IMG/VR virus record: IMGVR_UViG_3300017648_000009 | Location: 1-39,642 of that record | Length of the DNA stretch: 39,642 nucleotides | Reading direction: 5' to 3' (one strand) | From: a virus | Lineage: Duplodnaviria; Caudoviricetes | Shown here: one piece after another, positions 7,552-36,523 of the stretch | Layout: each line of letters opens with the position of its first letter | Position numbering within the stretch: position 1 is the first letter of the stretch | Notes under the pieces: generated by a model | What the model was told of the DNA's origin: nothing | The model's input: only the letters and a program-made list of their open reading frames with translations | The model's database searches: none | Position numbers and translations under genes: made by a program

Positions 7552-7560
7552 TCCCACACA

Positions 7561-7605: not shown

Positions 7606-7664
7606 CTCCGCACGGCGCGGTCAAGCCGGTTGTACGTCGACGGACGGAATAAACGGAGGATCAT

Positions 7665-8351: not shown

Positions 8352-8382
8352 GTTCATAACCGACTGACAGGAGACATGGCAC

Positions 8383-9348: not shown

Positions 9349-9390
9349 TCCCGGCGCTGATTCGTCGGAACAACGCGAAGGGATACAAAC

Positions 9391-9885: not shown

Positions 9886-9926
9886 ATCTCTCCGAATCCA
9901 GGAACACCGAAACGAATCGAGGGCAC

Positions 9927-10268: not shown

Positions 10269-10271
10269 CGC

Positions 10272-10742: not shown

Positions 10743-11038
10743 TGGGGGCGTATCTGGCGCAGACAGCCACGTGGCGTCGTCGCACCGGGCAGGACGGCTA
10801 CGGGGTGCCGACGTTCGCCGCCGACGCAACGATCACGTGCCGCTGGGAGTGGAAGCGCCGGATGGTGCGATCGCTCACTGGTGACGAGATCGTGTCCGAG
10901 GCGCGCGTGTTCACCCGCGATGCCGTCAACGCCGGGGATGTGCTGGTTGATCCGGCCGGCCGCGAGTGGACGGTCATCGGTGCCAGTCCACAGTACGCGT
11001 TGAACGGCTCGGAGCTGTTCCGGGAGGTGGCGCTATGA
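10742..11038 (+). CDS. Head closure / head-tail joining protein
   Basis: DGYGVPTF, ~100 aa beta-rich, neck position. Confidence 0.75.
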   Translation: MGAYLAQTATWRRRTGQDGYGVPTFAADATITCRWEWKRRMVRSLTGDEIVSEARVFTRDAVNAGDVLVDPAGREWTVIGASPQYALNGSELFREVAL

Positions 11039-11388
11039 AGCTCGAAGGGTTGGCAGCAGTTGAGGCGCGGATTGCGGCTGAACTGGCCGGAATGAAACAA
11101 CGCGCCGACGCCGCGATGCACGAGAACGCGCTGGATCTTCAGGGCCGATCGCAGCAGGCAGCACCGATCGAATACGGCGAACTGCGTGCCGCGGCTGATG
11201 TTCGGAAAGTCGGCGAAGGCGAGTATGAGGTCGGTTTTTATGGGCAGGGTATCAAGGCGATCGTCCAGCACGAACGGCTCGACTTCAACCATCCACGCGG
11301 CGGCCAAGCCAAATACCTCGAAGGCCCGTTGAACGAAAACTCCCAGCGCTACATCGAAAACGTCCGGCGCGCTGCCGGATCACGCTAA
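11035..11388 (+). CDS. HK97 gp10-like neck / tail completion protein
   Basis: APIEYGELR, VQHE, GGQAKYLE motifs; GGAGG SD before ATG 11035. Confidence 0.8.
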   Translation: MKLEGLAAVEARIAAELAGMKQRADAAMHENALDLQGRSQQAAPIEYGELRAAADVRKVGEGEYEVGFYGQGIKAIVQHERLDFNHPRGGQAKYLEGPLNENSQRYIENVRRAAGSR

Positions 11389-11417
11389 CACCAACACACA
11401 ACTGACAGGAGACGCAC

Positions 11418-11765
11418 ATGGCGCGGACCAGTCTGACGCCTCAGCAGGTCGTGACGACCGGGCTGGAGGCGACGTATACGGCTGCCAACGTGGACGGCCA
11501 CATGTTCGCACCGGGCGAGTCCCGCATGCTGCACGTCGTCAACGGCGGCGGTAGCAGCATCAACGTCACGGTGCAGGCGGAGTACACCCGCGACGGTCTG
11601 GCGTTGCCGGACCGCGTGGTCGCGGTGCCAAACGGCGAGGACCGCATGATCGGGCCGTTCGATCGCGAGACCTACGCCCAGCGGTCCGGCAATGACCGGG
11701 GCAAGGTCTACGTCGATTTCAGCGCCGTCACCAGCGTGACGGTCGCGCTGGTCGACGTGGGCTAA
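11418..11765 (+). CDS. Virion structural protein (beta-sandwich)
   Basis: AGGAG SD; LHVVNGGGSSINVTV...RMIGPF; within neck module. Confidence 0.65.
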   Translation: MARTSLTPQQVVTTGLEATYTAANVDGHMFAPGESRMLHVVNGGGSSINVTVQAEYTRDGLALPDRVVAVPNGEDRMIGPFDRETYAQRSGNDRGKVYVDFSAVTSVTVALVDVG

Positions 11766-11769
11766 ACCG

Positions 11770-12165
11770 ATGAGCGTCGTACAGGACATCGCCGCGTACC
11801 TCGAAGAGCGCCAGATCGTGGCGTTCGGGATCGACCTGTTTGTCTGGGCCCAGCCGGATCAACCGAACGCGCTCGTGGCGCTGTTCGACTATCCCGGCAT
11901 CGGTGGTCAGTACGAACACGATCAGCCGGAGCCAGCGATCTCATTCCCGCGATTCACCGTCAACGTCCGTGATGAGCGACCCGAGGACGCGGAGAGCCGG
12001 TCACGGGCGATAGCGGCAGTCCTGGAGGCGGTCAGGAACCAGACGATCAACGGAACACGGTTTCTCGCGGTTCGGCGCGTCGGCTCAGGCGGGCAGATGA
12101 CCGGACGCGATGACTCGGACCGCTACATCTACGTCACCAGCTACGAGGCGACGATTTCCAGATAG
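11770..12165 (+). CDS. Tail terminator / minor capsid-type protein
   Basis: DLFV..QPDQP..LVALFDYPG, GRDDSDR; precedes tail tube. Confidence 0.75.
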   Translation: MSVVQDIAAYLEERQIVAFGIDLFVWAQPDQPNALVALFDYPGIGGQYEHDQPEPAISFPRFTVNVRDERPEDAESRSRAIAAVLEAVRNQTINGTRFLAVRRVGSGGQMTGRDDSDRYIYVTSYEATISR

Positions 12166-12177
12166 GAGCAACAGAAC

Positions 12178-12615
12178 ATGGCTACCAAGACCTTCGCGCA
12201 GGGGGCGAAGCTGAGCATCGGGAACGGCGACGGGCCACCGGAAACGTTTTCGAAGATCGGCAACATTCAGGACATCACAACTCCAAGCGCGACCACCGAC
12301 CTGATCGATGTCACCGATCACGATTCCGCAGACCGCCGCAAGGAGTACTTGGCCGGCCTGACGGACTCGGACGAGATGACGTTCACGATCAACTGGGACC
12401 CAGAAGACACCGTTCACGATGACGTCGAGAGCCGGGTTGGCGAAAACGCCAACTTCAAGCTGGAGCTGAACAACAAGATCAGCTCCAGCGGCACAACCTA
12501 CGCATTCAACGCAGTGCTGCGCAAGTTTGTTGGACGCGCGCCGATCAACGGGCAGCACACGGCGGAGATTACCCTGAAGCCGTCCGGCACCGTGACCAAG
12601 ACACCAGCCGCCTAA
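12178..12615 (+). CDS. Major tail tube protein
   Basis: IDVTDHDS..RKEYLAGL.DS.EMTFTINWDP; AGGAG SD. Confidence 0.88.
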   Translation: MATKTFAQGAKLSIGNGDGPPETFSKIGNIQDITTPSATTDLIDVTDHDSADRRKEYLAGLTDSDEMTFTINWDPEDTVHDDVESRVGENANFKLELNNKISSSGTTYAFNAVLRKFVGRAPINGQHTAEITLKPSGTVTKTPAA

Positions 12616-12640
12616 TCCCTACCGAATCGAACTGCCGAAT

Positions 12641-12672
12641 AGCCGGAGGCGTTGAGTCTCCGGCTTCTGTTT
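12641..12672 (+). terminator. Terminator/attenuator after tail tube gene
   Basis: AGCCGGAGGC-GTTGA-GTCTCCGGCT followed by TCTGTTT. Confidence 0.65.
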
Positions 12673-12694
12673 CCCTATCAGATGAGGTGAGAGC

Positions 12695-13126
12695 ATGCCT
12701 GAATCGCTGCCGTCCCTGGTTGAGGACGTCGAAATTGAGATCGGCGGGAAACTGCGCCATCTGAGGATGGATTTCCGCGCCATCGCGGCGGCTGAACGTG
12801 TCACCGGCAAGAACCTGCTGCGTCCAGGCTCCGTCGCAACGGCTGGTGCATCTGAGATGACCGCGATCTTGTGGGGTTGCCTGCTGCACGAGGAACCTGA
12901 CCTGACGCTGGATATCGTGCGCTCATGGATCCACTACGGCAACGCCGCTGACACGTTCGTCGCGGTGATGGATGCCGTAGCCCGGTGTTTCCCCGATCCT
13001 GACGACGTTATCGAGACAGGGGACGACGGCGCAGAGGACCCTACCGAGGCAGTCCAGGATGGCCCGAAATCTGGGCGTTCGCGCGGGTCCAGCTCCAAAT
13101 CTCGACGAAGGAATTCTGGCGACTGA
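12695..13126 (+). CDS. Tail assembly chaperone (gpG-like)
   Basis: Between tail tube and tape measure; IEIGGKLRHLRMDFRAIAAAE. Confidence 0.85.
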   Translation: MPESLPSLVEDVEIEIGGKLRHLRMDFRAIAAAERVTGKNLLRPGSVATAGASEMTAILWGCLLHEEPDLTLDIVRSWIHYGNAADTFVAVMDAVARCFPDPDDVIETGDDGAEDPTEAVQDGPKSGRSRGSSSKSRRRNSGD

Positions 13127-13332
13127 CGCCGCGCGAGCATCATGCGTTGACGAAGCAGTGGTACGCCGCCGAACGAATGCTCGACTTCCGCGCCGGGCTA
13201 GTGGTCGCGACCATCGCCAACGTCAACCGTGGCCGGAATGCCGAACCGTTCGATCCGTCGGATTTCTTCCCGCGATTGCGCCAGAAGCGCGACATGGAAG
13301 CGGAGCTTGATCGGCTGTTCGGCCTGGGCTAG
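13003..13332 (+). CDS. Tail assembly chaperone -1 frameshift extension (gpT-like)
   Basis: -1 frame is open 13003-13332 and reads WPEIWAFARVQLQISTKEFWRLTPRE...ANVNR; EFWxLTPxE is typical of gpT; no own SD. Confidence 0.75.
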   Translation, partial: RRYRDRGRRRRGPYRGSPGWPEIWAFARVQLQISTKEFWRLTPREHHALTKQWYAAERMLDFRAGLVVATIANVNRGRNAEPFDPSDFFPRLRQKRDMEAELDRLFGLG

Positions 13333-13787
13333 TCTGCGTCGTTGAGCGCTTCCAGCGCATCGTCCCACAGGTCGCGGCAACTCTGCGTGAACGTCATGGC
13401 GTTGCTGATTTGTGCGGATGAGCCACTCAGCAACGCGTCGCGCATCATCGGCGGGTAGTCGGCCATGCATTCCAGCGCCTTCAGATAGGCCGTATGAGCG
13501 CCTTCCAAGTCAGCCGGTGGCCTGACGGCCTTCGCGTCCTTGAGTGTCGCTTCCACCGTCCCGACGGCATCGTTGAAGTCGCGGCCCCAATCGCTGTTTG
13601 AGATGAGGGCTGGCCTGTCAACTACCTGTTGGAACAGGTCGGCGACATCCTGCTGGGCGGTCGTAGATGTCTCGCCGATTTCGACCATGCGAGCGTGATA
13701 GTCACTGGCAGACATTCCGTTATCGCTACCACCGCAGGCGGTAATCACGGCACCGAGGATCAACAGGGCAAACATCGTCCGAATCAT
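13329..13787 (-). CDS. Lipoprotein moron on the opposite strand
   Basis: MIRTMFALLILGAVITA-C lipobox; GGAG SD; helical body. Confidence 0.8.
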   Translation of the reverse strand: MIRTMFALLILGAVITACGGSDNGMSASDYHARMVEIGETSTTAQQDVADLFQQVVDRPALISNSDWGRDFNDAVGTVEATLKDAKAVRPPADLEGAHTAYLKALECMADYPPMMRDALLSGSSAQISNAMTFTQSCRDLWDDALEALNDAD

Positions 13788-13870
13788 CACACTCTCCATC
13801 GCACACAGCACGTTCGCCACATAGTACGCGAACCAGAACGCCTGGAAATCTATTTTGAGGAGCAGCCGAC

Positions 13871-16800
13871 ATGTCGATGTCAGTCGGAGATCTCACCGCA
13901 CGCCTCGGCGTGGAACTAGACGACAACGGCATTGTCCAGAAGTTCCGGGCGCAGGTGCGTGCGCTGGAGGATATTCCCGATCCTAAAATCAGCGTCGACA
14001 CGTCGGCGGTTGACGAGAAAATCGCGCGCACCCAGCGCATGATCGTCCAGATCGCCGGGCAGGATGTCGAGATCGAGGTCGATGCCAACGCGAACCCTGC
14101 ACTCGCCGAAATGGCGAAAGCAGAGCAGGCGGCAAAGGCGCTGGAACGGTTCGCGCCAGAGGTGCGCGTTGCTGCCGAGACAACCGGCGCCGAACGCGAT
14201 CTCGGACGGCTGAGCAGCATCCTCGATAGCGTGGATCGGGCTGAGCATCACGCGCGCGTCGTGGCCGAGACAGATGCAGCGATGCGCGAGCTGCAGATCC
14301 TGCGCGCCCAGCTGAACCAACTGGACGACCGGCCCGCGCACGTCGAGATTCGCGCCGACACTGACCGTGCGATCGCCGATCTGCAGGCGCTGCGGCGGCA
14401 GATGGGCCTGATCGAGCAGGACACGGTCGCCGTGTCCACCAGCATGGCTGGCATGAGCACGACGCTCGCTGGCCTCGGGCAAAAAGCGATTGCGCTCGGT
14501 GCTGGATTTGGCATCGCTCAGGCGGGCATCGGGCTGATCAGTCGCGCGGCGGGTTTCCTCAAAGAGGCAGTTTGGGGTGCGAACAACTCACTGGACCAGA
14601 TCACGATCCGGATCAATGCATTCACGCGAGACGCTGATGCGACGCAGCGCATTCTGGACGGGCTGCGGCAGAAGGCCGCTGATCTGGGCATGCCGTTCCT
14701 CGACCTCGCCGAAGCCGTTGCGACCATCGGGCCGATCGCGAAGCAGACCAACCAGCCGTTGGATGAACTGCTCGATACCGCGATTCTGCTCTCTGCGGTG
14801 AATCCTGCCGAGGGGCTATCCGGTGCCATTTTCTCGATTCGCGAGGCGCTGTCAGGCGACTGGATGTCCCTGATGGACCGCTTCAACATGCCGCGCAACA
14901 TCATCAATCAGATGCGCGAGGACGGCGTCCCGGCGCTCGAAATCATCAATGAGCTGTTGCGTCAGCAGGGCGTTGATATGGAGATGGTCGGGCAGATGGC
15001 TGGGGTGGCTGACAGCCGTACACGCACGCTGTTCAGCAATCTCACGATGGCGGCTGCGCAGTTGGGTCGGCCAGCCTTCGACGCCGTGTCCAGCGTCATC
15101 GACCGGCTCGCGACCTACACCAGCAGCAACGCATTCCAGGAGGATCTCGACACCATCGGCAGGATCGCAGAGGGCATCGCCAACCTGCCGCCGATCAAGC
15201 TGGTCGAGGTGCTAGTCAGCTTCACGGTCGCACACGGCGACGATATCGCGGCGGCGCTCGGGTACACGTTCTCGAACAACAACGCACCGTTGGGCCTCGG
15301 GTACAGCGACGACGTTGTGCAGGTGATCTACGCCGCGACCGCTGGCACCGTGGAGTACAACGAGGCGCAGAAAGAGGCTGTTGAGCTTGCTGGTGAGCAC
15401 GCCAGCGCCTACCAGCAGTTCATTGATGCGCACGCCTACGATGCACAACTCCAGTTCAATCAGGAGGAGCTAAACCGGCAGGCAGAGGCGTACCACTTTC
15501 AGCAGGAACAGATCATCGCCGGGGAGCAGCGTCGCAAACAGGCCGCTGAGGAACGTGCGGCCGCAGAGGCGCAGGCTGAATCGGATTTCCAGCCACAGAC
15601 GAGCAAGCCGACATGGCAGGTGCCGGATATCTCGTCACTGTCGGCGGCCGCGCAGGCGATGTACGAGATTGCCGCGGCACAGACGGCGATCAATCGCACG
15701 CAGGACCGGCTCTCTGAGGCGTACCAGATCGGGCTGCAGATTCAGGCTGACTACACGGCGCAGGGGTCGGAGTACGCCCAGCAGCAGAGCATCATCGAAG
15801 AGGGCAACAAGATCCTGAAGGAACAACTGGATTCCGGCCAGATCACCCAGGAGCAGTACAACGCCGAGATTGAGCGCGGTGAAGGCGCGCTCGCACGCTT
15901 CAAGGGCGGACAGGAAGACGCGACGCTCACGGCACGCGATTACGCCATCCAAAACGGCGAGTTGATGAGCATTCAGGATCAGATCAACGAGCAGTTCCCC
16001 AACCTCGTGCGCGGTTCTGACGAGTACAACAAGAAGCTCCGGGAAGCTGCCCAGGCTGCTGGCATCAGCGACGAGGCGATCGACGGCATGATGGGCAGTG
16101 CCGGCAACCTGACGGGCACAATCGCCAACGAACTGATACCCGCGATTCTGCGGCTGATCGAAAAGCTCTCTGAACTGGACGGCAAGCACGTCACCGCGAC
16201 GGTCGAAACCAAGTTCATCACGACCGGCTCTCCGGTCGGGCAGGTCTACGGCCAGCAGGTTAGTGGCGGCTACATCGGTCTCGAAGAGCACGCCGCCGGC
16301 GGCTACATCGATCAGCCGATGGTCTCGATGCTCGGCGAGGAAGCGCCAGCACATCCTGAATGGGTCATTCCGACCAACCCGGCGCGACGTGGCCGTGCGA
16401 TGGATCTCTGGATGCAGGCTGGGCACTCTCTGGGCGTGCCGGGTTTCGCAGACGGTGGCGGCGGTCGTTCGCTGGCTGGCAACACCGGCGGTGTCGCGGC
16501 GGGGCAGCCGGTCGGCAGCTCGACGATCGATTGGTCGTGGCTGTTTGCCGGTCTGGACGCCGAAGCCGAGGATTACGCCGAGCGTGCGGCGCAGAAGGTC
16601 GTCCAGTTTTTCGGCAACATCGACAAGCTGGTTGACGGCTCGATGCTGCGTGACGCGCAACAGAAACTGGCTGATCTGTTCCTGATTCGCCAGATCATGA
16701 TCGACTCCGGAGCCAGCGATGCCGTGATTGCCGGGCTGGATGCCCAGATCGCTTCCGCGCAGGCAGACGTGCAGGCGATCGGGGCGGTGATGGGTTCCGA

Positions 16801-24626: not shown

Positions 24627-25037
24627 TTAATCCTTCAGATCATCTGGATAGACGTTCCCCGAGAACCCAATTTCGCGTTTGGGATGATCCGGAGTGTTCT
24701 TTAGCCGACGCATCACAACCTGTACAGTCGACACGTGAGCAAGAACGGAAACCTCGTTCCCTTGTGAGTCTAATCCCCATATATAGAAGAGGTTCGGATT
24801 ATGGTACCCAAAGTCGTAAGCGACAATTGTCTCGCCGTTCGAGAGAACAACGTGTGCTTCGATATGCTCGTCTTCAACTGTGTTCGTCTCAAAGTCTTTG
24901 ATGCCCTCTTCTAGGCGATCGTAAAATGTGCTAGCCAAGTCACCAGAATCTACGGTACCTCGGACGTTCACGGGCGGTGACTTGAGCGTCTCGGCAATAT
25001 TGAATTCAGGAAACTGCGGCGGTTTGAAGCCTGTCAT
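24627..25037 (-). CDS. DUF6173-like protein
   Basis: LAS.FY.RL...I.DFE, GYHNPNL..I.G, KREIGF pattern recalled for this family; GAGG SD. Confidence 0.7.
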   Translation of the reverse strand: MTGFKPPQFPEFNIAETLKSPPVNVRGTVDSGDLASTFYDRLEEGIKDFETNTVEDEHIEAHVVLSNGETIVAYDFGYHNPNLFYIWGLDSQGNEVSVLAHVSTVQVVMRRLKNTPDHPKREIGFSGNVYPDDLKD

Positions 25038-25306
25038 ACTGACCTCTCTCGTTGTGGGTGCGGATGATTCCTATGGCGACTGGTGAGCTAATCGGCCGCG
25101 TTTGACTCGCTGGCATGATTGAGGTGATCCACGTCACTGGTCGGAAGTGGCGCAGGCGAGATGGAGCACCGCCGGGATCGCGGGTGGTGACGTGAGCGTC
25201 TCGGCACAATGGAATTCCAAGCAAGCAGGTAATTTGAAGTCTGGCATTTCTACATCTCGTTGTAGAGATTCTGACTGGTTTGACGTCGCCTATCTAACAG
25301 TGCCAG

Positions 25307-26071
25307 TTAGTCGCTATGCGCCTCGTCTAACTCCTTCAAGAGATCGTCAATGATACGGTCAATTGAACTAAAGAACTGGCGTTTCTCCTTCTCATATGTC
25401 TTTCCTGACAGCCGGAGTCGGTATTTCCGATCCAGAAACCGCTTCTTCTTACCGTGCAGTCGCCTCTCGATATACGCATAGCTCGAGCTTTGAGTGATTG
25501 CGTCTGCTATGGCCTGTTCACGTATATCAGTAAGGCCACGCGCTATGTATTCATAAAGGGGGCCATAGTCACCTTTGTCGGCAAGGCTTAGACTACGCAG
25601 GTACGGCTCGCGCAGAAGACCAAAGTACTCAAATAGATGTTGTGGCGGCTCCAGGATGCCCATGTTGTACGAAGCAAGTAAGTGAAATGCTCGTGCTGTT
25701 CGGCCGTTTCCGTCCTGGAATGGATGGATACAGAGAAGTCTGTGCAGTAGTTCGGCTGAGAGCATTACAGCCTCGGCATAGGTAGGTTTCTTTGCGACCC
25801 TCTGTTCCACGTCGTCACAAAGATCTACAAGATCGCTGCTGATCATGTGGGCCGCAGCGGGAGTAAATGGCGCTCCGCCTACGACTACCTCGTGTATAGC
25901 TGTCCGTTTCTGTCCGGCAAAGTCATAGAGATCTGATGATATTATGGAATGCAATTCGAATATAACACTTGGGTGATACGGATTTCGGTCGGGCGTCTCA
26001 GAATGAAACGCGACCACGCGTGCAAACGCGGTCGCGTTATTCTCGATCTCAAGTAAGCTAACGTCCGTCAT
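25307..26071 (-). CDS. Fic-domain toxin (AMPylase)
   Basis: Canonical HPFQDGNGRTAR motif. Confidence 0.92.
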   Translation of the reverse strand: MTDVSLLEIENNATAFARVVAFHSETPDRNPYHPSVIFELHSIISSDLYDFAGQKRTAIHEVVVGGAPFTPAAAHMISSDLVDLCDDVEQRVAKKPTYAEAVMLSAELLHRLLCIHPFQDGNGRTARAFHLLASYNMGILEPPQHLFEYFGLLREPYLRSLSLADKGDYGPLYEYIARGLTDIREQAIADAITQSSSYAYIERRLHGKKKRFLDRKYRLRLSGKTYEKEKRQFFSSIDRIIDDLLKELDEAHSD

Positions 26072-26340
26072 CTAGACGCTAAGGCTGGCCGATTCATGAA
26101 ACCCTCACGAATCTCCTCAAGAGTGATGGTTGGATCCTCCGCCGCCAGGTTCCCCCAGACAGCCGTAATGATCTCTTCATCGTTGGGTAATCGTCCCCTT
26201 GATACATTGAGCGACGGCGATTCATATTGGTCGAGCAACGATTGAAGCTCTTGCGCGAGCTTCGCATTGAGGTCAGTGTTACGCTGTCCGTCCTCTCTGC
26301 GTGCCCTGCGGATAAAGCGTCCAGTGATCCGTCGAATCAT
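26068..26340 (-). CDS. Putative FicA/VbhA-like antitoxin
   Basis: 90 aa, ATGA-coupled upstream of Fic; AVWGNLAAEDP resembles the (S/T)xxxE(G/N) inhibitory helix. Confidence 0.65.
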   Translation of the reverse strand: MIRRITGRFIRRARREDGQRNTDLNAKLAQELQSLLDQYESPSLNVSRGRLPNDEEIITAVWGNLAAEDPTITLEEIREGFMNRPALASR

Positions 26341-27232: not shown

Positions 27233-28789
27233 TCACCCCTCACAACCCCAGCCGTCCTTGTTGCCATCGAGTCGATGCGGGTCAGGATTCGGCACGTTCC
27301 ACAACACACGGATTGGCTTCTGTGACGCTGAGAAGTCCGAGCAGTTGAGATCCGGCGGTGGCGGCGGGATGCAGAAGTTCGGGTAGCTCGGATGGCACGC
27401 GCTCGACGGTGGTTTCGTCGGTGTCGCAGTGGGCTGCGCCGGCTGTGTTGGCGTCGCCGTTGGTTGTGCTGGCGGCTGCGTCGGCGTCGCATTGCATCCT
27501 GCCCACAATCCACGGCCGGCCGCCTGAGCCTCATTCTGCGCCGCTGCTAACTGCTGCGAGTGCGCGACGTCCGGCGGATAGGTACTGGCATAGGCGTAGC
27601 CGTTGCGCACAAGCCAGTCGTTCACAAAGAGGTCGCCAACGTAGACGTAGCGGAGTAGCCGGTCGTACCGGTCGGTGTTTGAGACGTCCTTCACCAGCCG
27701 GACTACTTTGCCCTCGATGAGCTGCTTGGTCGCGGCCGATGCCTCCGGCCCGTAGCAATCGACGCCGCCGTACACCTCGGGTGTGTCGATGCCGATCAGT
27801 CGGACGCGGTACACGGTCCCGTTAAGGTCAACATCGAACGTGTCGCCATCGACAACGCGCGTCACAACACCGTGCTCGCCGACCGGTGCAGGCTCGGCAC
27901 CGGCATAGCGCCAGTCAAAGTAGTGCAGCCCGACGTTGCCAGCCTCGACCTGCCAGCCGACCGGGTTGCTCGATGTGTAGGTGAGGCACCGGCGCTCGAA
28001 GCACTGCCACAGAACATCCTTCTGTGCCCCGGCTACTTTCACAGTCAGCCAGTACGCCTCGGTGATCGGGAAGCCGGTTGCGTAGAACGGATTCGGGAAG
28101 AGCTTGTCAACGGCGCTGGAATCGCCCTGGCGGATCAAGCCCTCGGAGTTCATGAAGTCCCAGAAAACCGATGCCACGGTGTGATTCGTCTCAGGGACGT
28201 AGTACGCCGCCGTGACGCCGCTGCCGTGGTACGGATCGCCCATGCTCTCGTGACCAGCGCGAGTGATGTACCCCCAGATTAATTCGCCCACGGCGCGCGC
28301 CGGCCGGTTTCGCAAGTCGAACGTGGCGATGTCCGCGTAGGTGATGCTGGGGATCTGGGGCAGGATCTGGCCGTCAGTGTCACCTGCGACAGGAATTGCT
28401 GGCGGGTCGATCGTTTCGCCGTATTGACTATCGCCGATCTGGACCTGTCCACTGACCATCTCGGAGACCAGCAGGCCGTTGGTGACGTACCACAGGCCGT
28501 CATCGACCGCATCAGGATGCGTGATTTCCATGCGGGACTTGTCGAAGTATTGAACGGTGCGATTCTGGCCGGGCGACTGTGCGTACGGTTCGGGGATGGC
28601 GTCGGTAAACGCTTCCGGTCCCCACATCCATGTACGCGAGATTGCACCAGCTGCGACCGGCTGATCTGTCCGCGCCCACGTTCTCTGGAACGCATCGTTG
28701 GCTATTGGTGTTGCGGTGACACCAGGGATCGCTAGAGTCCCCAGCACGAGGCTGAGGAGCACGACGAGACGCATAGTCCGGCTGCGCAT
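27233..28789 (-). CDS. Secreted thermonuclease (SNase) with Chloroflexi-type surface domain and Excalibur-like C-terminus
   Basis: Signal peptide; VQYFDKSRME, GFPITEA, QCFERR; VVDGDT, IDTPE, DRYDRLLRY; CHPSYP..DLNCSDF..LDGNKDGWGCE. Confidence 0.9.
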   Translation of the reverse strand: MRSRTMRLVVLLSLVLGTLAIPGVTATPIANDAFQRTWARTDQPVAAGAISRTWMWGPEAFTDAIPEPYAQSPGQNRTVQYFDKSRMEITHPDAVDDGLWYVTNGLLVSEMVSGQVQIGDSQYGETIDPPAIPVAGDTDGQILPQIPSITYADIATFDLRNRPARAVGELIWGYITRAGHESMGDPYHGSGVTAAYYVPETNHTVASVFWDFMNSEGLIRQGDSSAVDKLFPNPFYATGFPITEAYWLTVKVAGAQKDVLWQCFERRCLTYTSSNPVGWQVEAGNVGLHYFDWRYAGAEPAPVGEHGVVTRVVDGDTFDVDLNGTVYRVRLIGIDTPEVYGGVDCYGPEASAATKQLIEGKVVRLVKDVSNTDRYDRLLRYVYVGDLFVNDWLVRNGYAYASTYPPDVAHSQQLAAAQNEAQAAGRGLWAGCNATPTQPPAQPTATPTQPAQPTATPTKPPSSACHPSYPNFCIPPPPPDLNCSDFSASQKPIRVLWNVPNPDPHRLDGNKDGWGCEG

Positions 28790-29391: not shown

Positions 29392-30167
29392 TTGCAGATC
29401 ATTCTCTCGGACTCACGCTTGATACCCACTTGCCTGGCAACGTCAACTAGTGACACGTCTACAAGCAGCCGCGGAGAGCCTTCATGGTTTGCAAACGCAA
29501 ACCCCGAGAACTCTGGCCTGGTAGTGAGTTCTTCGATTGGTCCTCGTGCGACGCTTTCCTTGTAGTCGCGAATCCCATCTCGAATGTATTCGTGAAGTAG
29601 GTAGCGGTGAGCCAATATCCAAACGTAAAGACCACCCGGGGTATGAAGTCGCTTGACTGTCTCTTGACTCTCATCTTGGGGCATCACGCATGCTAGCTCA
29701 TCAGCAGTTATCGTTATGTGGAACGCGGTTGTATCTGCGCCATCAGCCATGGGCGGCTCATACCAGTGTAGATTTGGAGTCCCTGTTCCCAAGTCGCCAC
29801 GAGGCGCAAGTTCGCTGTCAGGAACAATGACTGACAAAGTCCACTCGTGGCTGCTCTGTGATAGATCCACAACTGGCCAGGTGTCAATACAGCGCCCATT
29901 GTCAGGATCAAGCACTCTAGGATGGGCTGCTGCGAATTCCTTCGTCCATTGGTAATACCAAGCGTTCGCGTGCCGACTAGCCTTTTGGACCCCACCAAAC
30001 ACACCGTGCATGATGTAAAGGTCTTGCTTGTGGGTCTTGATCTTCCAGATCGCGGACCGAACCTCGGGAGTGCCGACGGCAAACTTGTACTCTGATTTGC
30101 TGGATGACGGCAAGTGCGAACTCCACTGTCCATCTTCTTGTACTGAGGTGCCAATCGATTCTCTCAT
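29388..30167 (-). CDS. Hypothetical protein coupled to integrase
   Basis: 259 aa, lower GC, ATGA overlap with int stop. Confidence 0.65.
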   Translation of the reverse strand: MRESIGTSVQEDGQWSSHLPSSSKSEYKFAVGTPEVRSAIWKIKTHKQDLYIMHGVFGGVQKASRHANAWYYQWTKEFAAAHPRVLDPDNGRCIDTWPVVDLSQSSHEWTLSVIVPDSELAPRGDLGTGTPNLHWYEPPMADGADTTAFHITITADELACVMPQDESQETVKRLHTPGGLYVWILAHRYLLHEYIRDGIRDYKESVARGPIEELTTRPEFSGFAFANHEGSPRLLVDVSLVDVARQVGIKRESERMICN

Positions 30168-31153
30168 AAGTTCAGCTTCAGATGATCCAGAGCCGAATGC
30201 TCGCGTGCGGCTCTTACGAGATCAGCCTCGACGAGCTTCACGTACCGACGCGTCATCTCTAACGAGGTATGCCCGAGCATCATCTGAAGCTCGAACTCTC
30301 GCATGCCGGCGCGGATCGCTGATACTGCGGCTGTATGGCGGAACCGATGGGGGTGGCACGGATCCACGACGGCTGTCTCTCCAAGCAACCTGATGACCCG
30401 TTGCAGTCCCGAGCGCGTCAGTGACGTCCCTCGATAGCCAATGAAGAGTCCGCCAACCTCACCGCGAAACTGACGGTAGCGGAGCCAGTAGCGCCGCACC
30501 TGGCGACGTGCACGCGATCCGAGACGCAACTGCCGCGCTTTGTTCCCTTTGCCGGCAATTACCAGAAGATCACCCGTTGCGATGTCGTAGTGCGATACCT
30601 CGATCGCGCATAGTTCTGATGCTCGCAACCCCACGTCCAAGAGAACCGCAACGATGGCGCGATCGCGCTCCGCCCGGAAATCATCCGGTGCACTCCGGAG
30701 CGTCGCCGCCAGTCGTGCGAGCTCATCGTCATCAAACGGATCCGGCTGTTCGGCTGAGAACTTGGGAGCGCGCACCTTTGACATCGGCGTCTCGTCGAGA
30801 TACTCCTGCTCCACGAGCCAGTTGTAGAACCGCGACAGGATCCGATGGTACGCATGGCGTGACCGAGCGGTCACGGGTTGATGCGACGGCGTGTGAGTAG
30901 ACGGCGCATCCCACCTATCAGTTGTCGTCTGCAGATAGAGGAGAAACGCCCGAATCGTCGATGCAGTGTGGTCCGCCACATCGAGCGGCATCGATTCCTG
31001 TGAACACCACCAATGGTAGCGACGGAGCGCACGTTCGTAGTTGTAAATCGTTCGTGGCGACAGCTCTGCGAGCTGACAATCGTCGATAAACGCAGCGATC
31101 AACGTCGCGAGTTCATCGCGCGAAACGATGCGAAGAATGGGGACTGATGTCAC
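30164..31153 (-). CDS. int: Tyrosine integrase (XerC-like size, no obvious arm-binding domain)
   Basis: GLRASEL, GKGNK, HPHRFRHT, LGHTSLEMTRRY; GGAGGG SD 8 nt before GTG. Confidence 0.95.
   Translation of the reverse strand: MTSVPILRIVSRDELATLIAAFIDDCQLAELSPRTIYNYERALRRYHWWCSQESMPLDVADHTASTIRAFLLYLQTTTDRWDAPSTHTPSHQPVTARSRHAYHRILSRFYNWLVEQEYLDETPMSKVRAPKFSAEQPDPFDDDELARLAATLRSAPDDFRAERDRAIVAVLLDVGLRASELCAIEVSHYDIATGDLLVIAGKGNKARQLRLGSRARRQVRRYWLRYRQFRGEVGGLFIGYRGTSLTRSGLQRVIRLLGETAVVDPCHPHRFRHTAAVSAIRAGMREFELQMMLGHTSLEMTRRYVKLVEADLVRAAREHSALDHLKLNL
31132..31153 (+). repeat. 22-bp direct repeat copy 1 flanking attP (overlaps int start)
   Basis: GAAGAATGGGGACTGATGTCAC; 20/22 identical to 31362-31383. 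Confidence 0.8.
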
Positions 31154-31160
31154 TTTTCGA

Positions 31161-31181
31161 GCCCTCCTGGCGCTGGAGGGC
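31161..31181 (-). promoter_or_regulatory. Hairpin sequestering the int Shine-Dalgarno sequence
   Basis: mRNA GCCCUCC-AGCGCCA-GGAGGGC then UCGAAAA-GUG. Confidence 0.7.
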
Positions 31182-31232
31182 GGCAGTTCGACGCGCGTTT
31201 TCCGCGTCTGGATGCGGATTCTGTTGGTCTAG

Positions 31233-31274
31233 AGCCCTTGTCGGGATTCGAACCCGAGACCTCTTTCTTACCAA
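31233..31274 (-). other. attP core = 3' half of tRNA-Thr(GGT)
   Basis: Minus strand TTGGTAA-GAAAG-AGGTC-TCGGG-TTCGAAT-CCCGA-CAAGGGC-T: anticodon loop to discriminator, 5' half absent; ~80 nt upstream of int. Confidence 0.88.
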
Positions 31275-31361
31275 CTAAGGTGATTCGCCGACCTGCCGCG
31301 CTCTTCCGTTTCCCTATCTACAAGCCAAATCGCTACCTCGTGCGACCCTTCTTTCCAGCAA

Positions 31362-31383
31362 GAAGAATGAGGAGTGATGTCAC
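31362..31383 (+). repeat. 22-bp direct repeat copy 2 flanking attP
   Basis: GAAGAATGAGGAGTGATGTCAC. Confidence 0.8.
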
Positions 31384-31423
31384 ATCCCATCCTGCCCTGG
31401 TCTTTGCCGTCGACACGGAACTG

Positions 31424-32668
31424 TCATCTCTTGGCCGCTCGATACCCGGCGGCTTCGGCGTCCGCGCCGGTTGCGAAGCACTCCTCGGGGATCGTCTTGT
31501 TGTATGCCTGCTGTCCGGGCCGGTGATAGATCCACTCGCCGCTGCTGCTGTGATTGCCCTTGATCGGGTGGCCGTCCGGGCAGGACGATCCCTGCGGCGG
31601 GGCGCTGCCACCACCAGTCGCAGGTGGTGGTTCCGGCGCGACCTGGACCGGCTCTGGCGTCGGTGTAGGCGGCGTCACCGGCACGCCGAAGTCACCGCAA
31701 GATCCCCACAGGCCGCGACCTGTGTCGCGTGCCTCACGCTGTGCGTTCAGGAACATATCAACATACCGGACATCAGGAGGGAACGTGGCGACCTGGGCGT
31801 ATCCGCCGGCGATCAGCTCGAAGTTCAATATCCTCGTGCCGCCATCGTCCTGGACGAGCCACACGTAACGCAGCAGTCGGTCGTAACGATCTCGTTCTGA
31901 GACATCCTTCTCCAGATAGACGACACCACCAGCTCGCCGAATCATGTCCTCAGTGAACGCCGTGGCCTCAGCGCCGTAGCACATGACCGGCGAGTTCGGA
32001 TCCTTCGTCTCGGGTGTGTCCACGAGGATCAATCGGACGCTCTCCGTCACACCGTTGTAGTTCACCTTGATCGTGTCGCCGTCAACGACAGAGACGACAT
32101 CGAAGCGCTCTCCAGGTGGGCCAGTCGGTTCAGGCGTCTCTGTAGCCGGCACTTCCGTTGGCGGAGGCTCAGTCGCCGGAATCTCTGTCGGCGGGACATC
32201 GGTCGGAGCGGGCTGAGCGGCCACCAGTGGCGCGACGGCTGTCGTGTTCGATGATGACGTTGCAGTTGCTGCTGGGCGGCTTGTAGGCGCAGTTGGTACT
32301 GCTGTGGCGGTCGGTGCCGATACGGCTTGCTGCGCTGGTTGAGCGCGCCGCGGTGGTGGATTGCTGTCGCCGCCTCCGTATATCGACTGAGCAGAGATCG
32401 CTGAGATCGGCACGAACAGAATCGCGAGAATGAGCGCGAACCGCATTGGCGTCGCGGTCATGAACCGAGGCGCGCGCCGGAATGCGCGAGACGACATGAG
32501 ACGAGTCACCCACTCTGGGCGCTTCCGAGCCGCCACGACCAACGCGATGAGAGCAGGAATCAGGACGGGCGCAAGCAAGCCTGACAAGTAGATCGCCGCA
32601 ACAACTCCAACCAGCCAGAGCGTCGCAATTACCAGAATACGGACCAAGCTGCGCCTCCACTCCAGCAC
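31424..32668 (-). CDS. Membrane-anchored thermonuclease (SNase) with C-terminal IKGN..YH..GYR domain
   Basis: N-terminal TM helices, Pro/Thr linker, VVDGDT, VDTPE, DRYDRLLRY; CPDGHPIKGN..IYHRPG..ECF..AEAAGYRA. Confidence 0.88.
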   Translation of the reverse strand: MLEWRRSLVRILVIATLWLVGVVAAIYLSGLLAPVLIPALIALVVAARKRPEWVTRLMSSRAFRRAPRFMTATPMRFALILAILFVPISAISAQSIYGGGDSNPPPRRAQPAQQAVSAPTATAVPTAPTSRPAATATSSSNTTAVAPLVAAQPAPTDVPPTEIPATEPPPTEVPATETPEPTGPPGERFDVVSVVDGDTIKVNYNGVTESVRLILVDTPETKDPNSPVMCYGAEATAFTEDMIRRAGGVVYLEKDVSERDRYDRLLRYVWLVQDDGGTRILNFELIAGGYAQVATFPPDVRYVDMFLNAQREARDTGRGLWGSCGDFGVPVTPPTPTPEPVQVAPEPPPATGGGSAPPQGSSCPDGHPIKGNHSSSGEWIYHRPGQQAYNKTIPEECFATGADAEAAGYRAAKR

Positions 32669-32723
32669 CTAGAAGGGAATTCTCTGCGTTCGCCTACCGA
32701 TGTCCCTCAGATCAGGAACTGAT

Positions 32724-33245
32724 CTACTGAAGCTTGGACATCTCATCGAAGAACCGGTCCAACATCTCTGAGTACTCATCGAAAAGAGCTTGAACCTCCG
32801 AGTCTGGCTTGTCAGCGAGGAACGCAATGAATCCGTTAATTGCAGCGTCCATCGCGCCCACCATGGCGTCTTTAGCTGGGACTGCGCATTCGGGCCAGTC
32901 AGCGTTCTGAATGTCTCTCCGGATCTCTTGGAGGCTCGCGATCTGTGACGCCAGCTGCATCCTCGGCGTGCTGTTTGCGAGATCGGCCGCGTCATCCCAG
33001 CGCTGGCCTTCTGTTCGCAAGAGGTCGTAGACCTTATTGCCGTCCTTTGTCGAGCATGCTGGTTCTGGAGTAGCAGTAGGTGTCGGTGCCGGAGTTGATG
33101 TCGGTTTGGGCGTTGCCGTTGGCAGTGGAGTTGGCGACGGCGTCGCGGTGAATTCTGGCGTGACAGTTGCTGCGTCACCAGCAGCACCCCCGCACCCGGC
33201 TACGACAACGCCTAACAGTGCCAGAATGATCACGATCCGCAACAT
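32724..33245 (-). CDS. Lipoprotein (immunity region; superinfection-exclusion candidate)
   Basis: LLGVVVAG-C lipobox, PT-rich linker, helical C-terminal domain; GGAGG SD. Confidence 0.8.
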   Translation of the reverse strand: MLRIVIILALLGVVVAGCGGAAGDAATVTPEFTATPSPTPLPTATPKPTSTPAPTPTATPEPACSTKDGNKVYDLLRTEGQRWDDAADLANSTPRMQLASQIASLQEIRRDIQNADWPECAVPAKDAMVGAMDAAINGFIAFLADKPDSEVQALFDEYSEMLDRFFDEMSKLQ

Positions 33246-33380
33246 TCCGAAGCCTCCTGCCTCCTAAATCGAAATCATTGTGTCTGCCCTACACTCGCTC
33301 TGCCGGTCACCCGTAATGCTGATCTTTGGCGTTTACCTCTTCACCACTACCGGACTATTCGGGATAGACAATCTGCTGGC

Positions 33381-33752
33381 CTAAAAAAGAGAGTCATGAC
33401 TGTCCCAGACGGGAAACAGCCGTGCGAAATCGGACGTGCGCTTCTCCGTCTTGCGCTCCACGAGGTACCCCCACGGAACCTTGCTCCAATAGAGACTATT
33501 GAACGGGAACGCGATGATGTGACCGATCTCGTGCCACGCGCGCCGGGCGAGAATCGTTCCGACTCGCAGATCGCGGAGGAAGACGATTCGGTCCAGGTGG
33601 AAAGCTGCCGGTGCGTCAGTGCGCTCATGGACGATGATCGTGATGTCCCAGTCAGCGGCGAATCGTTCGTATTCATTCCATCTGTACGTGCCATAGAAGA
33701 GCCGAAACCGCTGCACCATCTCTGGAACAACCCACTGCCCCTCAATCATCAC
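33381..33752 (-). CDS. ImmA/IrrE-family metallopeptidase
   Basis: AWHEIGH (HExxH), E..TSDFA; coupled downstream of the repressor. Confidence 0.8.
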   Translation of the reverse strand: MMIEGQWVVPEMVQRFRLFYGTYRWNEYERFAADWDITIIVHERTDAPAAFHLDRIVFLRDLRVGTILARRAWHEIGHIIAFPFNSLYWSKVPWGYLVERKTEKRTSDFARLFPVWDSHDSLF

Positions 33753-34114
33753 TCGCCTTTCGATTCCTCCATGCCCAGAAACTGCTTCGCCATCTCAATC
33801 ATCGCTCGCTTCTGAGCTGACGTCAGACGGTGTTGATTGATCGCTGCGAACGATATCAATGGGTCGGACAGATCGATCGGAACATCTGGCACGGTCTCAT
33901 ACCCTGCCAGTTCCAGAACGTAGTTGGGGTGTACATCGAAGAGCCTTGCGATGCGGATGGCACTGTCCCGGCTGGGCCGATCTTTGCCATTCATCCATCT
34001 GCTGACCTGCGCAGGGTCAATTCCGACTGCACGGGCGAAATCCGCGCGAGTCCATTCATGAACCCGCAGCTGCTCCCACAACCACGCTCTCAATGATTCA
34101 TTGCGTGCGCTCAT
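33749..34114 (-). CDS. XRE-family immunity repressor (ImmR-like, no S24 peptidase)
   Basis: WTRADFARAVGIDPAQVSRWMNGKDRPS HTH; divergent from the cro-like gene; start ATG 34114. Confidence 0.9.
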   Translation of the reverse strand: MSARNESLRAWLWEQLRVHEWTRADFARAVGIDPAQVSRWMNGKDRPSRDSAIRIARLFDVHPNYVLELAGYETVPDVPIDLSDPLISFAAINQHRLTSAQKRAMIEMAKQFLGMEESKGE

Positions 34115-34126
34115 GCGGCCATGATA
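34115..34126 (-). promoter_or_regulatory. -10 element for a leaderless repressor mRNA
   Basis: Minus strand TATCAT-GGCCGC-ATG; no SD. Confidence 0.6.
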
Positions 34127-34146
34127 GCGGGGTTTGCACAGATGTG

Positions 34147-34175
34147 TTGACAATGTGGAGCATCCTCCATATAAT
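34147..34175 (+). promoter_or_regulatory. Early lytic promoter (PR-like), perfect consensus
   Basis: TTGACA-17 nt-TATAAT. Confidence 0.92.
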
Positions 34176-34192
34176 GTTGAGTATGGTCAACA
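34154..34192. promoter_or_regulatory. Two repressor operators
   Basis: TGTGGA-N6-TCCATA (34154-34171) and perfect TGTTGA-N6-TCAACA (34175-34192). Confidence 0.7.
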
Positions 34193-34202
34193 AGGAGTCA
34201 CG

Positions 34203-34472
34203 ATGAAGAAGCCAGTCCAAACCCGAATCTTTGATGTCTTGGCCAGCCGCGGGCAGTCGGTAATGTGGTTCGCGTCGCAGATGGGCATTGAGCGCAGCCG
34301 CCTCTATCGCATCGAGTGGGGAGAGCGGCCGATGCCAGATGACTACCTGGATCGTGCAGCCCGTGTGCTCCAGCTGCCGCGCGAGATGTTGATTTTTTTG
34401 CCCTCGGAATTGCGCACACTCCACGATTCGAAGCGAGAGCGCAATAACTGCCATACGCGGGTGCCAGCATGA
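34203..34472 (+). CDS. Cro-like HTH protein
   Basis: SVMWFASQMGIERSRLYRIEWGERP; AAGGAG SD; first gene after PR. Confidence 0.85.
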   Translation: MKKPVQTRIFDVLASRGQSVMWFASQMGIERSRLYRIEWGERPMPDDYLDRAARVLQLPREMLIFLPSELRTLHDSKRERNNCHTRVPA

Positions 34473-34867
34473 CCGCGACGACTCACCTGCGCACCGTCTC
34501 GACGACCGTACACCCGCGTCGGCGCCCCAACATGTGGCGCACGCTCCGTCCCTACGCAGTCCGCGCTGGCTACACGACACAGGCGCAGCTGGCGCAGCAG
34601 CTCTGCATCACACGCGAGCATCTCTCTCGCATCTGTCGCGGCGCGGCGTGGTTCACCGAGCCAATGGAAGAGCACATCAGTCACCTGCTCCACCTCTCGC
34701 ATGAGGAACGTAACGCAGCGTTCGGGTATCCGGGCAGCAAGCCCTCATCTATGTCAAGTCGATCAGCAATGTTAGGAGCGACTGGTACGGGCGGCGTGTT
34801 GGCGCGCGTCGCGTCTGGATGCGGATCTGTTGGTTTGGGGCGTTCTGCCCGGAGCGCCGAACGATGA
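34469..34867 (+). CDS. Second XRE HTH protein (Cox/excisionase candidate) with low-complexity tail
   Basis: TQAQLAQQLCITREHLSRICRG HTH; ATGA coupling. Confidence 0.7.
   Translation: MTATTHLRTVSTTVHPRRRPNMWRTLRPYAVRAGYTTQAQLAQQLCITREHLSRICRGAAWFTEPMEEHISHLLHLSHEERNAAFGYPGSKPSSMSSRSAMLGATGTGGVLARVASGCGSVGLGRSARSAER
34778..34841 (+). ncRNA. Segment antisense to the int leader / tRNA trailer (putative trans-activating RNA)
   Basis: Degenerate copy of 31170-31235 with a 17-nt identical block; substitutions A>G and C>T only. Confidence 0.65.
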
Positions 34868-34916
34868 CCTCTGCATACTCCTCCCCTCACTCCACCCCAT
34901 CCCTGGCCCCGCTGGT

Positions 34917-35443
34917 GCCGGATGCCCGCCTCTCGGGCGATCCGGCCCAGCACGCAGCGCCTCGTCTGGAGAGTCCGGCTCCAGGTGGGACGCTGCGTGC
35001 TGGGGGAATCGAACCCACCCCCAGTGAATCCCGTGAGGCTGCTGGCGGCGCGCAGATATCCCCACTGCATGCCGTCAGCGATCAGCCGGTCAGGCACCGA
35101 GTCTGTTGCGAGATTCCGTGTGTACTGCCGTCCCTGGCAACGTCTGGCCGGCTGATCGCTGACGTATCGGCGGATGTCAGATGCCGGATTGGGAATAGCG
35201 TCAGCGCTGTACCGCGACATGGAGGTGTCCCATGTAAGCGACCAAATCCAAAACGTAGTGCATTTGAGATGTCCCTTGGGTCTGGCGTCGCCCTCGCCTG
35301 CGACGCCAGCGATCAGCCCACGGTGAGAAATACCGGGTTGCCCGTCTCCTGGTCGCATCGAACGGGCCGTGGGCTGATCGCTGGCGGTGTTGGTCAGCAT
35401 GGCGGCGCTCCTCTCTGCGAGACAGCGTCTCACGAGAGAGAGC
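34917..35443 (+). ncRNA. Large structured non-coding region in the early operon
   Basis: At least six stems of 10-21 bp, including two paralogous long hairpins (35073-35164, 35304-35386). Confidence 0.65.
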
Positions 35444-35475
35444 GGCAGAAATTAATTCCCGGAATGGAGGGAACT

Positions 35476-35814
35476 ATGGCGCGAGATGCCCGATTAGTGA
35501 CAGGCGCGATCGACGAATGTGTCGATGTCGTGGTGGTGGCTCAGGATGTCCGACTGCGCACGATCGCGCGGCTCGCTGACGGTGTGCTGACAGCAGACGA
35601 GCGAGCAGCGCAACTGGCCGACATGGATCTACTGATCACTGAAGCGCACCAGGCTGCGCGCGCGGTCACAGAAGTTGATCTCGCTGAGCGGTGGGCGATG
35701 GCGGCAATGACTGGCCGCATATCAACACTGCTCGCTGAGGACATCGAGCAGTTCGGTTCAACGCTGCCAACGGCAATTCCAGCAGGAGAGCCGATCGGGC
35801 TGGACGTGGTGTGA
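35476..35814 (+). CDS. Small regulatory protein, weakly CII(P2/186)-like
   Basis: GGAGGG SD before ATG 35476; LADGVLTADERA motif. Confidence 0.55.
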   Translation: MARDARLVTGAIDECVDVVVVAQDVRLRTIARLADGVLTADERAAQLADMDLLITEAHQAARAVTEVDLAERWAMAAMTGRISTLLAEDIEQFGSTLPTAIPAGEPIGLDVV

Positions 35815-35878
35815 CGGCCGGGTGAGAGCCGGTCGTCACGAGTATCCGATGTGTGTACGGATGAGGAGATTCTAACAG

Positions 35879-36523
35879 ATGAGCTTGAGTACCAGTACCA
35901 CCCACACACAGATCCACGAAACGTACCCCGGACCTGAGGCTGAACCGGTCGAGGTTCGCGTCGCTGATGCAGATACCTGGTCGGCTGTGCGCACATTCGG
36001 ACAGCAGATCGTTGCGTCGATCGACAAGCGCCGATCGACGCTGGATCACGTTCCTGGCATGGCCGTCTCAATGACTGCGTTCGTTGTGACATCGATCGAC
36101 GCACCGGAACATCGCCAGGGCGTGGTTGTAGCTCGCGAGAGCGGCGGTCATGTCTTCACCATCTGCAGCTGCATGAGCGCGCTTCTGCACCGCCCATGCT
36201 GGCACGCCGCGCTGGCGCTGGACGAGATCGATGCCTGGCCAGCCGACATGCCGCTACGAGATACGCCTGATCGCGTGGTGGCGGTGCGCACCGTCCTCGG
36301 GGAGCACCACAACGCCAGCCGCTGGCACTACGTCGTCGGCGATCTGGGCGACTACATCTCGGTCATGGTCGCTGGACGCATGGCAGCTCCGGCGGTCGAC
36401 GTTGCGATTCGTGACGCGCTGGATGCGCTCCGCTCGTACGGTGTCCGCTGCCGGAAGAGCCGCAATCGCCCGGTGGTCGAAGTCTCGATCACTGCGATGC
36501 AGGCGCTTGAGGCGGTGCGCTAA
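35879..36523 (+). CDS. SWIM-type Zn-finger protein
   Basis: CSC...PCWH; GAGGAG SD. Confidence 0.7.
   Translation: MSLSTSTTHTQIHETYPGPEAEPVEVRVADADTWSAVRTFGQQIVASIDKRRSTLDHVPGMAVSMTAFVVTSIDAPEHRQGVVVARESGGHVFTICSCMSALLHRPCWHAALALDEIDAWPADMPLRDTPDRVVAVRTVLGEHHNASRWHYVVGDLGDYISVMVAGRMAAPAVDVAIRDALDALRSYGVRCRKSRNRPVVEVSITAMQALEAVR

Follow-up and report, generated by a model that had tools for sequence, protein, structure and literature searches.

We analyzed the complete genome record of a tailed phage (IMG/VR record IMGVR_UViG_3300017648_000009, 39,642 nucleotides, hereafter the window), in which terminase, portal, capsid, tail, endolysin and holin genes were found, and we describe a candidate RNA switch acting on its integrase gene, int. 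The int leader is predicted to bury its own Shine-Dalgarno (SD) sequence in a hairpin, and a stretch complementary to this leader, which we call the key, lies in the tail of the second of two early genes encoding helix-turn-helix (HTH) proteins. The match between the two is real and conserved, and the system is probably an RNA-RNA switch. We consider it very likely that the leader and the RNA carrying the key pair with one another. That this pairing activates translation of the integrase (Int) is the best reading of its direction, one that we favor slightly and that rests on modeling in one phage. The features on which the argument turns are as follows.

30164..31153, minus strand: tyrosine integrase of 329 amino acids with core-binding and catalytic domains only, the predicted regulated gene, starting with GTG at 31153
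31161..31181, minus strand: SD-sequestering hairpin, made up of an anti-SD arm (31181-31175), a 7-nucleotide loop and the SD GGAGGGC (31167-31161)
31182..31231, minus strand: leader spacer with the first leader hairpin (31218-31201), following the tRNA end; docking region of the duplex
34778..34841, plus strand: key, complementary to int leader positions 31170-31235, in the tail of the second HTH gene and about 3.6 kb from the leader

The integrase leader carries a predicted lock

Opening the int SD is modeled to cost 12.3 kcal/mol, the highest value among the 35 genes of the window with a recognizable SD; for the other 34 the modeled median is 4.05 kcal/mol (interquartile range 3.05-5.6, maximum 11.6). 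The hairpin is kept in all five close leaders available for reading, those of the window and of the relatives L001, G064, G016 and G073, at a cost of 9.6-15.0 kcal/mol. Its loops differ among these leaders, and its stem is altered in G016. A translational lock on int had been proposed in a first-pass annotation of this DNA, and both the conservation of the hairpin and its modeled cost bear that proposal out. The first leader hairpin, upstream of the lock, is terminator-like on the plus strand only.

One complementary site in the genome

The key is the only site in the genome complementary to the int leader, and it lies on the opposite strand. It includes an exact block of 17 out of 17 letters (31203-31219 = 34810-34826), and a self-comparison by blastn aligns 31178-31228 with 34789-34834 (E 2.1e-4). 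By duplex energy it is the best of 5243 segments (-101.8 against a mean of -45.7, sd 7.8, with the next unrelated site at -74.7), and by an alignment that is aware of G-U pairs it is the first of 3140 (70 against 34 for the next unrelated segment), a score reached in 0 of 1000 shuffles. The coordinates, the SD hairpin and the exact block first reported for this stretch are thus as written, and the degenerate copy of the leader noted in the plus strand early transcript is the best complement genome-wide. The duplex spans the anti-SD arm and the loop and ends before the SD.

The differences between the two copies are biased in the direction expected of pairing RNAs. The gap-free blocks contain eight substitutions, six of them A>G or C>T (31185, 31189, 31191, 31229, 31231, 31233) and none G>A or T>C, and all six keep G-U pairs when the plus strand RNA pairs with the int leader. 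The remaining two (31186, 31187) are transversions that had been taken for bulges; the earlier count of five substitutions, all of the A>G or C>T kind, is corrected accordingly. Compared between orientations, the G-U-aware alignment of the window scores 70 versus 56. The leader of run X22 differs at 31185 and 31187 in ways that would strengthen its pairing with the window key; the X22 key is not covered, and the observation is weak. Contigs from RNA runs cover parts of both sites without strand or ends, and a DNA-run contig over the element around the key has a similar extent; we do not count these as support.

We rejected a further block of pairing that would join the 5' portion of the key-containing loop to int codons 1-15 or to the upstream 22-nucleotide repeat: the cognate alignments gave p 0.37-0.85, and only the G001 duplex energy reached p 0.01, with the site ranking 1419 of 4136.

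The key lies in a stem-closed RNA element

The key sits in the loop of a larger structure, whose closing stem the first-pass annotation overlooked, as it did the arm-less architecture of the integrase.

34716..34866, plus strand: stem-closed RNA element with arms 34716-34744 and 34838-34866, the loop containing the key

The element measures 110-150 nucleotides, and its closing stem is present in all three phages that have the second HTH gene (window, L001 and G001), where it starts at the same A-F-G codons of that gene. The arm duplex, at -43.0 in the window, is matched by 0 of 1486 random segments there, 2 of 1484 in L001 and 0 of 1487 in G001. Fold z scores for the whole element are -2.6 (window), -0.9 (L001) and -3.7 (G001), and the inner stems differ in sequence between the three phages. 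The window and G001 share a 10-mer, read in frames 0 and 2, and the window and L001 share the 3' arm, read in frames 1 and 2; shared letters in different reading frames indicate that the constraint acts on nucleotides. In the homologues P0066-P0068 of the second HTH protein, L-R-I stands where the window has C-G-S in the key, as a compensating pair of frameshifts would give.

The shared stretch could instead act as DNA, with an HTH protein recognizing it at both places as an operator or accessory recombination site. In favor of this, the 17-bp exact block forms an imperfect palindrome, and a palindrome follows the tRNA in relatives. The match, however, runs over 50-65 nucleotides, collinear and bulged, its wobble pattern is strand-biased, and in the L001 key most of the palindrome is gone while the spacer match is retained. 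No exact or one-mismatch copy of the palindrome occurs elsewhere, and none at the promoters. We regard a DNA site as the least probable of the alternatives weighed here, and the original preference for RNA over DNA finds support in the stem-closed element, the letters kept in different frames and the promoters free of palindrome copies.

Modeled pairing opens the lock in the window

In the window, leader and key are modeled to bind at -36 to -55 kcal/mol depending on context, against a mean of -7.7 and a minimum of -17.8 for 150 random RNAs. Pairing would lower the cost of opening the SD from 12.3 to 4.4-6.2 kcal/mol, at or near the upper range of ordinary genes, while random RNAs leave it at a mean of 11.0 (minimum 6.1). 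In L001 the loop is modeled to bind the leader at -19.6, beyond the null minimum of -15.1; with the closing stem intact the value is -4.6, co-folding being unable to model pairing inside a closed loop. The earlier claim that the early RNA opens the lock is carried by the modeled SD opening in the window but not by the model of L001, in which the hairpin stays closed, and activation itself is a modeled outcome.

The two RNAs might also pair with a negative outcome. Cleavage of a 50-65-bp duplex would be RNase III-like, and in lytic growth it could destroy the int mRNA; alternatively, the key could dock upstream without freeing the SD. Such an outcome would suit the long and nearly perfect duplex of the window, the L001 model, in which the key docks on the spacer and the hairpin is retained, and the modeled cuts upstream of the anti-SD arm, after which opening the lock still costs 11.4-12.8 kcal/mol; known antisense RNAs of phages, P4 CI for example, also act negatively, in the excerpts of PMC4825925 on which we draw. 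A message already locked at 9.6-15 kcal/mol, on the other hand, needs a key more than a second lock, and no other key was found. Repression on induction would block excision, and the duplex, broken up by bulges, covers the anti-SD arm and loop and halts before the SD. We judge a negative outcome to be unlikely.

Relatives and covariation

L001, whose Int is 60% identical to that of the window, has the only other complete leader/key pair. Its best leader match among 1656 segments (21 kb) falls inside the homologous element (38, next 34; 0/1000 shuffles). In a register of 21 positions the window pairs 19 and L001 pairs 18, and the two leaders differ at eight of these positions: two are A:U to G:C double changes, three are one-sided, two turn mismatches into pairs and one loses a pair.

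Several points weigh against a key that opens the int lock. The covariation between the two pairs is modest, and these pairs are the only complete ones (G001 is without the leader; G064, G016 and G073 are without the early gene). A swap of partners is one-sided, with 14/21 positions for the window leader and L001 key and 20/21 for the L001 leader and window key, and the L001 key is better matched by the leader of G073 than by that of L001 itself (49 vs 38, SD opening 4.2). L001 is without a G-U bias (38 vs 39). Duplexfold does not rank its site within the best 15 of 2224, and in 28 of 129 distant loci the best hit reaches its score of 38 by chance; on these grounds we count the L001 match by its position only. 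In the L001 model the minimum free energy (MFE) structure retains the SD hairpin with the key docked on the spacer, and SD opening falls from 15.0 to 8.2, within the null (mean 11.2, sd 2.8, 5th percentile 5.5). The key, moreover, lies inside a translated frame and within a closed stem. Costly leaders also occur where no key was found: among distant Chloroflexota integrase leaders behind a tRNA, 17 of the 92 with an SD motif cost at least 9.6 kcal/mol (median 6.6). Finally, no key was found in a survey of 129 of 239 distant loci (Int identity 27-37%, plus L162, which is L001) with at least 2.5 kb upstream and a distinct leader. The best antisense-strand scores there have a median of 33 (same strand 32), and the three scores of at least 70 are two tRNA copies and one duplicated gene start.

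In the integrase leaders of seven distant Chloroflexota loci (L106, L127, L155, L133, L090, L098 and L108), about 90 nucleotides before int, a tRNA, a hairpin (with a U tract in some), an SD-burying hairpin and the start follow one another. No antisense key was found near these leaders, and none was among the matches listed 13-60 kb downstream of five genomic elements with locked leaders. The related phage L021, in which int is deleted down to its last 69 codons (9983-10210), the att core and leader are gone and the early genes are different, gives no blastn match to the element, though its downstream hairpins match; it serves as a weak negative control.

Searches for further close relatives among Thermomicrobiales (192 genomes) and a class sample (401) returned the same three integrases, some 30 further integrases stand at 46-72% identity, and scans of IMG/VR with the two HTH proteins and the repressor returned known records or none. 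The palindrome pattern matched 401 phylum genomes at about the control level, the stem-plus-10-mer pattern found G001 and four unrelated matches, and the contig with the G064 repressor, which ends 238 nucleotides past the gene, held no match to either HTH gene. On present evidence, the lock and key appear confined to this small phage clade.

The match might be the relic of an old duplication and the pairing without function, with the leader hairpins serving tRNA 3' processing or termination and the closing stem having its own role in the early mRNA. Leaders of the tRNA-hairpin-hairpin kind are indeed common in distant integrases for which no key was found, the L001 numbers are weak and the pairs few. 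Against a relic speak the match that each of the two phages, 60% identical in Int, retains at the corresponding place to its own type of leader, the 6:0 wobble bias in the window and the letters kept across reading frames; we give this explanation a slim chance. Our higher confidence in pairing than in activation follows from the L001 modeling, the chance score and the swap test, each of which weakens the case.

Integrase, att core and tRNA junction

The minus strand int gene follows the 3' half of a tRNA-Thr(GGT) gene, and the sites around this junction are listed here.

31232..31274, minus strand: att core, the 3' half of tRNA-Thr(GGT) from the anticodon loop to the 3' end, and the only stretch matched by host-like contigs
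31132..31153, minus strand: copy 1 of a 22-nucleotide direct repeat, overlapping the int start; possible accessory recombination site
31362..31383, minus strand: copy 2 of the repeat, on the other side of the att core

Only the 3' half of the tRNA stands upstream of int; ARAGORN found no whole gene. One contig of run X3 matches 31203-31274 with 0 differences and continues into the 5' half of a host tRNA-Thr, while contigs of other runs match 31232-31274 only. The X3 contig (one contig, depth 3.9, 29 letters past the core) is the tRNA/leader junction of a lysogen. In G064 and G016 a whole tRNA stands immediately before the leader. The close elements use tRNA-Thr, -Gln and -Lys, and every leader begins right after the tRNA end with the first hairpin. 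The idea that int is read through from the host tRNA in the lysogen is thus backed as to geometry, by the junction contig and the whole tRNAs in relatives, whereas the read-through transcription itself is what we infer from that geometry. In L252 a 9-kb element (7336-16620, G073) with its own integrase lies between a whole tRNA-Lys and a displaced tRNA half, leader and broken int of the family described here, an arrangement of tandem use of one tRNA.

The Pfam SAM-like domain of Int begins at residue 17-18 and the catalytic domain spans 141-307, with no N-terminal arm-binding domain; the nearest solved proteins are XerA/XerD-like. Int thus has the core-binding and catalytic domains of an arm-less (simple) tyrosine integrase. 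No excisionase family is listed for the 50 window open reading frames (ORFs) scanned in PHROGs. A conserved direct repeat flanks the att core, and an accessory factor may have escaped recognition. L001 has a direct repeat of other sequence at the equivalent places (7788-7811 and 8008-8031) and similar distances. Translational coupling through an ORF spanning the tRNA and leader (31113-31274) was dropped as a candidate, with no evident SD and no conservation found.

Since pairing is symmetric, sequence alone does not tell which RNA controls which. The direction could be reversed or mutual, the leader, produced steadily as a tRNA trailer in the integrated phage, acting on termination or processing of the early transcript beyond the second HTH gene, in the manner of a P4 CI-like immunity RNA that senses integration. 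The junction does put the leader under the host tRNA, modeled pairing breaks the element's closing stem, and a C-rich tract of the kind found at Rho sites (22 C and 1 G in 34868-34903) follows the second HTH stop. Whether or not the leader is present, however, this tract is unpaired; no such tract is evident behind the element of G001, one is present in L021, which lost int and the leader, and the conserved SD lock would be left unexplained. We think a reversed or mutual direction quite unlikely.

The early region and its surroundings

The predicted source of the key transcript is an early promoter within a compact regulatory region.

33381..33752, minus strand: ImmA-like metalloprotease (phrog_87, E 7.8e-5)
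33749..34114, minus strand: Xre-type repressor, from domain and PHROG matches
34147..34175, plus strand: predicted early promoter PR, TTGACA-17-TATAAT, 12/12 consensus
34203..34472, plus strand: first early HTH gene, Cro-like, from domain and PHROG matches
34469..34867, plus strand: second early HTH gene, Xre-type, its 3' third holding the RNA element

The minus strand protease and repressor genes (33381-34114) face the plus strand PR, which precedes the two HTH genes; the protease, which we take to be ImmA, is presumably an anti-repressor. The second HTH protein had been suggested to be Cox/Xis-like, but its matches are to Cro/C1-type (Xre) HTH families only and to no excisionase family: in Pfam it matches HTH_31, HTH_3 and, weakly, HTH_Crp_2, its homologues match Xre regulators, and it has no PHROG match. 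The three closest genomic Int relatives, at 51-59% identity, were found by searching the Chloroflexota order Thermomicrobiales, which is why we regard a member of that order as the likely host.

Between the second HTH gene and the ORF 35476-35814 lie about 600 nucleotides of very stable nested hairpins (34871-35475, plus strand; MFE -316.6, z -8.4 against 40 shuffles), parts of which are kept in L021 and for which no Rfam match was found. Pairing is predicted between the C-rich 5' end of this region and the SD region of ORF 35476, and the G001 homologue of that ORF has a weak match to a CII-like family. Elsewhere in the window, a 254-amino-acid ORF (25307-26340, minus strand) with an HPFQDGNGR motif, presumably Fic-like, is preceded by a 90-amino-acid ORF and may form a toxin-antitoxin moron with it; the moron region also has a 40-nucleotide direct repeat (24968-25007 and 25178-25217, 85%), which blastn ranks first among the direct self-matches (E 1.7e-5). 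The integration module is flanked by two predicted nucleases of the staphylococcal type, membrane-bound or secreted (27233-28789 and 31424-32668, minus strand).

A proposed lock and key for integrase expression

As a whole, we consider the following explanation somewhat better than an even bet. The int leader would bury its SD in the conserved hairpin and so keep the integrase message locked, and the stem-closed element within the 3' third of the second early HTH gene would pair in trans with the leader and free the SD. The element may act from the mRNA or after its long stem is cut, cutting of long stems being RNase III-like behavior. Transcription of the leader would start at the host tRNA promoter in the lysogen and, after infection, would reach it across attP from the leftward operon. 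The on signal would come from the early transcript, both after infection and on induction, and synthesis of Int would be confined to periods of derepression of the early promoter, when the phage has to enter or leave the chromosome. With an Int that has no arm domain and no excisionase recognized, prophage stability may be governed mainly by the dose of Int. Placed behind a host tRNA promoter, the gene would need a tight off state and an on signal linked to derepression.

Once the phage has integrated into a tRNA gene, int lies downstream of a strong host promoter, and any leak could excise the prophage if the integrase requires no directionality factor. If the explanation is correct, a lock opened by the early lytic transcript solves this problem without an extra protein and adds a post-transcriptional layer to the lysis-lysogeny switch. 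More tentatively, and with somewhat less than even confidence, we suggest that an RNA lock and key replaces the Xis/CII layer in temperate phages with arm-less integrases and no excisionase, and that the duplex may also report integration to the early operon, because the leader is made as a trailer of the host tRNA only after integration.

Comparison with known systems

We found no activating RNA control of a phage integrase in the open-licence PMC and bioRxiv literature. In a synthetic toehold switch the ribosome binding site (RBS) lies in a hairpin loop behind an unstructured 5' toehold, and in the DsrA/rpoS system an anti-antisense activator opens an RBS hairpin by strand displacement from an upstream docking region. 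The system proposed here resembles both in that strand displacement from upstream docking would open an RBS hairpin. The label of a natural toehold switch, first applied to this locus, therefore holds as an analogy but not in detail, because here the SD is the 3' stem arm and the docking region has its own hairpin.

The c4 antisense RNA of P1 and P7 has the Rfam entry RF01695 and is tabulated in PMC2864571. It is negative in effect, and its targets flank it in the same transcript. Like c4 and P4 CI, the key belongs to a structured phage RNA that lies within an early transcript or is released from it by cutting, and that would pair with phage sequence and steer lysis versus lysogeny. Unlike these negative RNAs with flanking targets in their own transcript, it has a single target on a separate, opposite-strand message. 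No Rfam match to c4 or P4 CI was found in 30800-36000 at E up to 10, nor in L001, L245 or L021 at the gathering score, and other Rfam matches were nothing relevant. P4 CI is itself described, in the part of PMC4825925 used here, as a structured phage antisense RNA that is negative in effect.

The closest functional match, as far as the excerpted account goes, is the IsrK small RNA of the Salmonella prophage Gifsy-1, which, in a manner linked to induction, base-pairs in trans with a phage mRNA that is inactive in translation and exposes an RBS (PMC4825925). IsrK is a short isoform of the very transcript that it targets, and it switches on orf45-anrP and then AntQ (PMC4825925). Both systems thus involve a prophage RNA that pairs, or would pair, in trans to free an RBS and is tied to induction. 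In contrast to the isoform relationship of IsrK and its target, the key is held in the coding tail of a different gene, 3.6 kb away on the opposite strand, and its target is an integrase leader behind a tRNA.

As to the integrase, excerpts of two accounts give the context: simple recombinases were found in 27 phages against 410 with arm-binding integrases (PMC8138268), and for simple integrases Int expression sets direction, more Int destabilizing the prophage (PMC3694055). In the Brujita group, with its integration-dependent immunity, Int is limited by targeted degradation and attP lies inside the repressor gene (PMC8138268, PMC3694055). The Int described here shares with the integrases of that group, as portrayed in these excerpts, an architecture of core-binding and catalytic domains only, and there the level of Int rather than an excisionase sets direction. 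In the window, unlike the Brujita group, a tRNA half serves as attP at a distance of 2.5 kb from the repressor, with the att core (31232-31274) outside the repressor gene (33749-34114), and the predicted limit on Int is translational.

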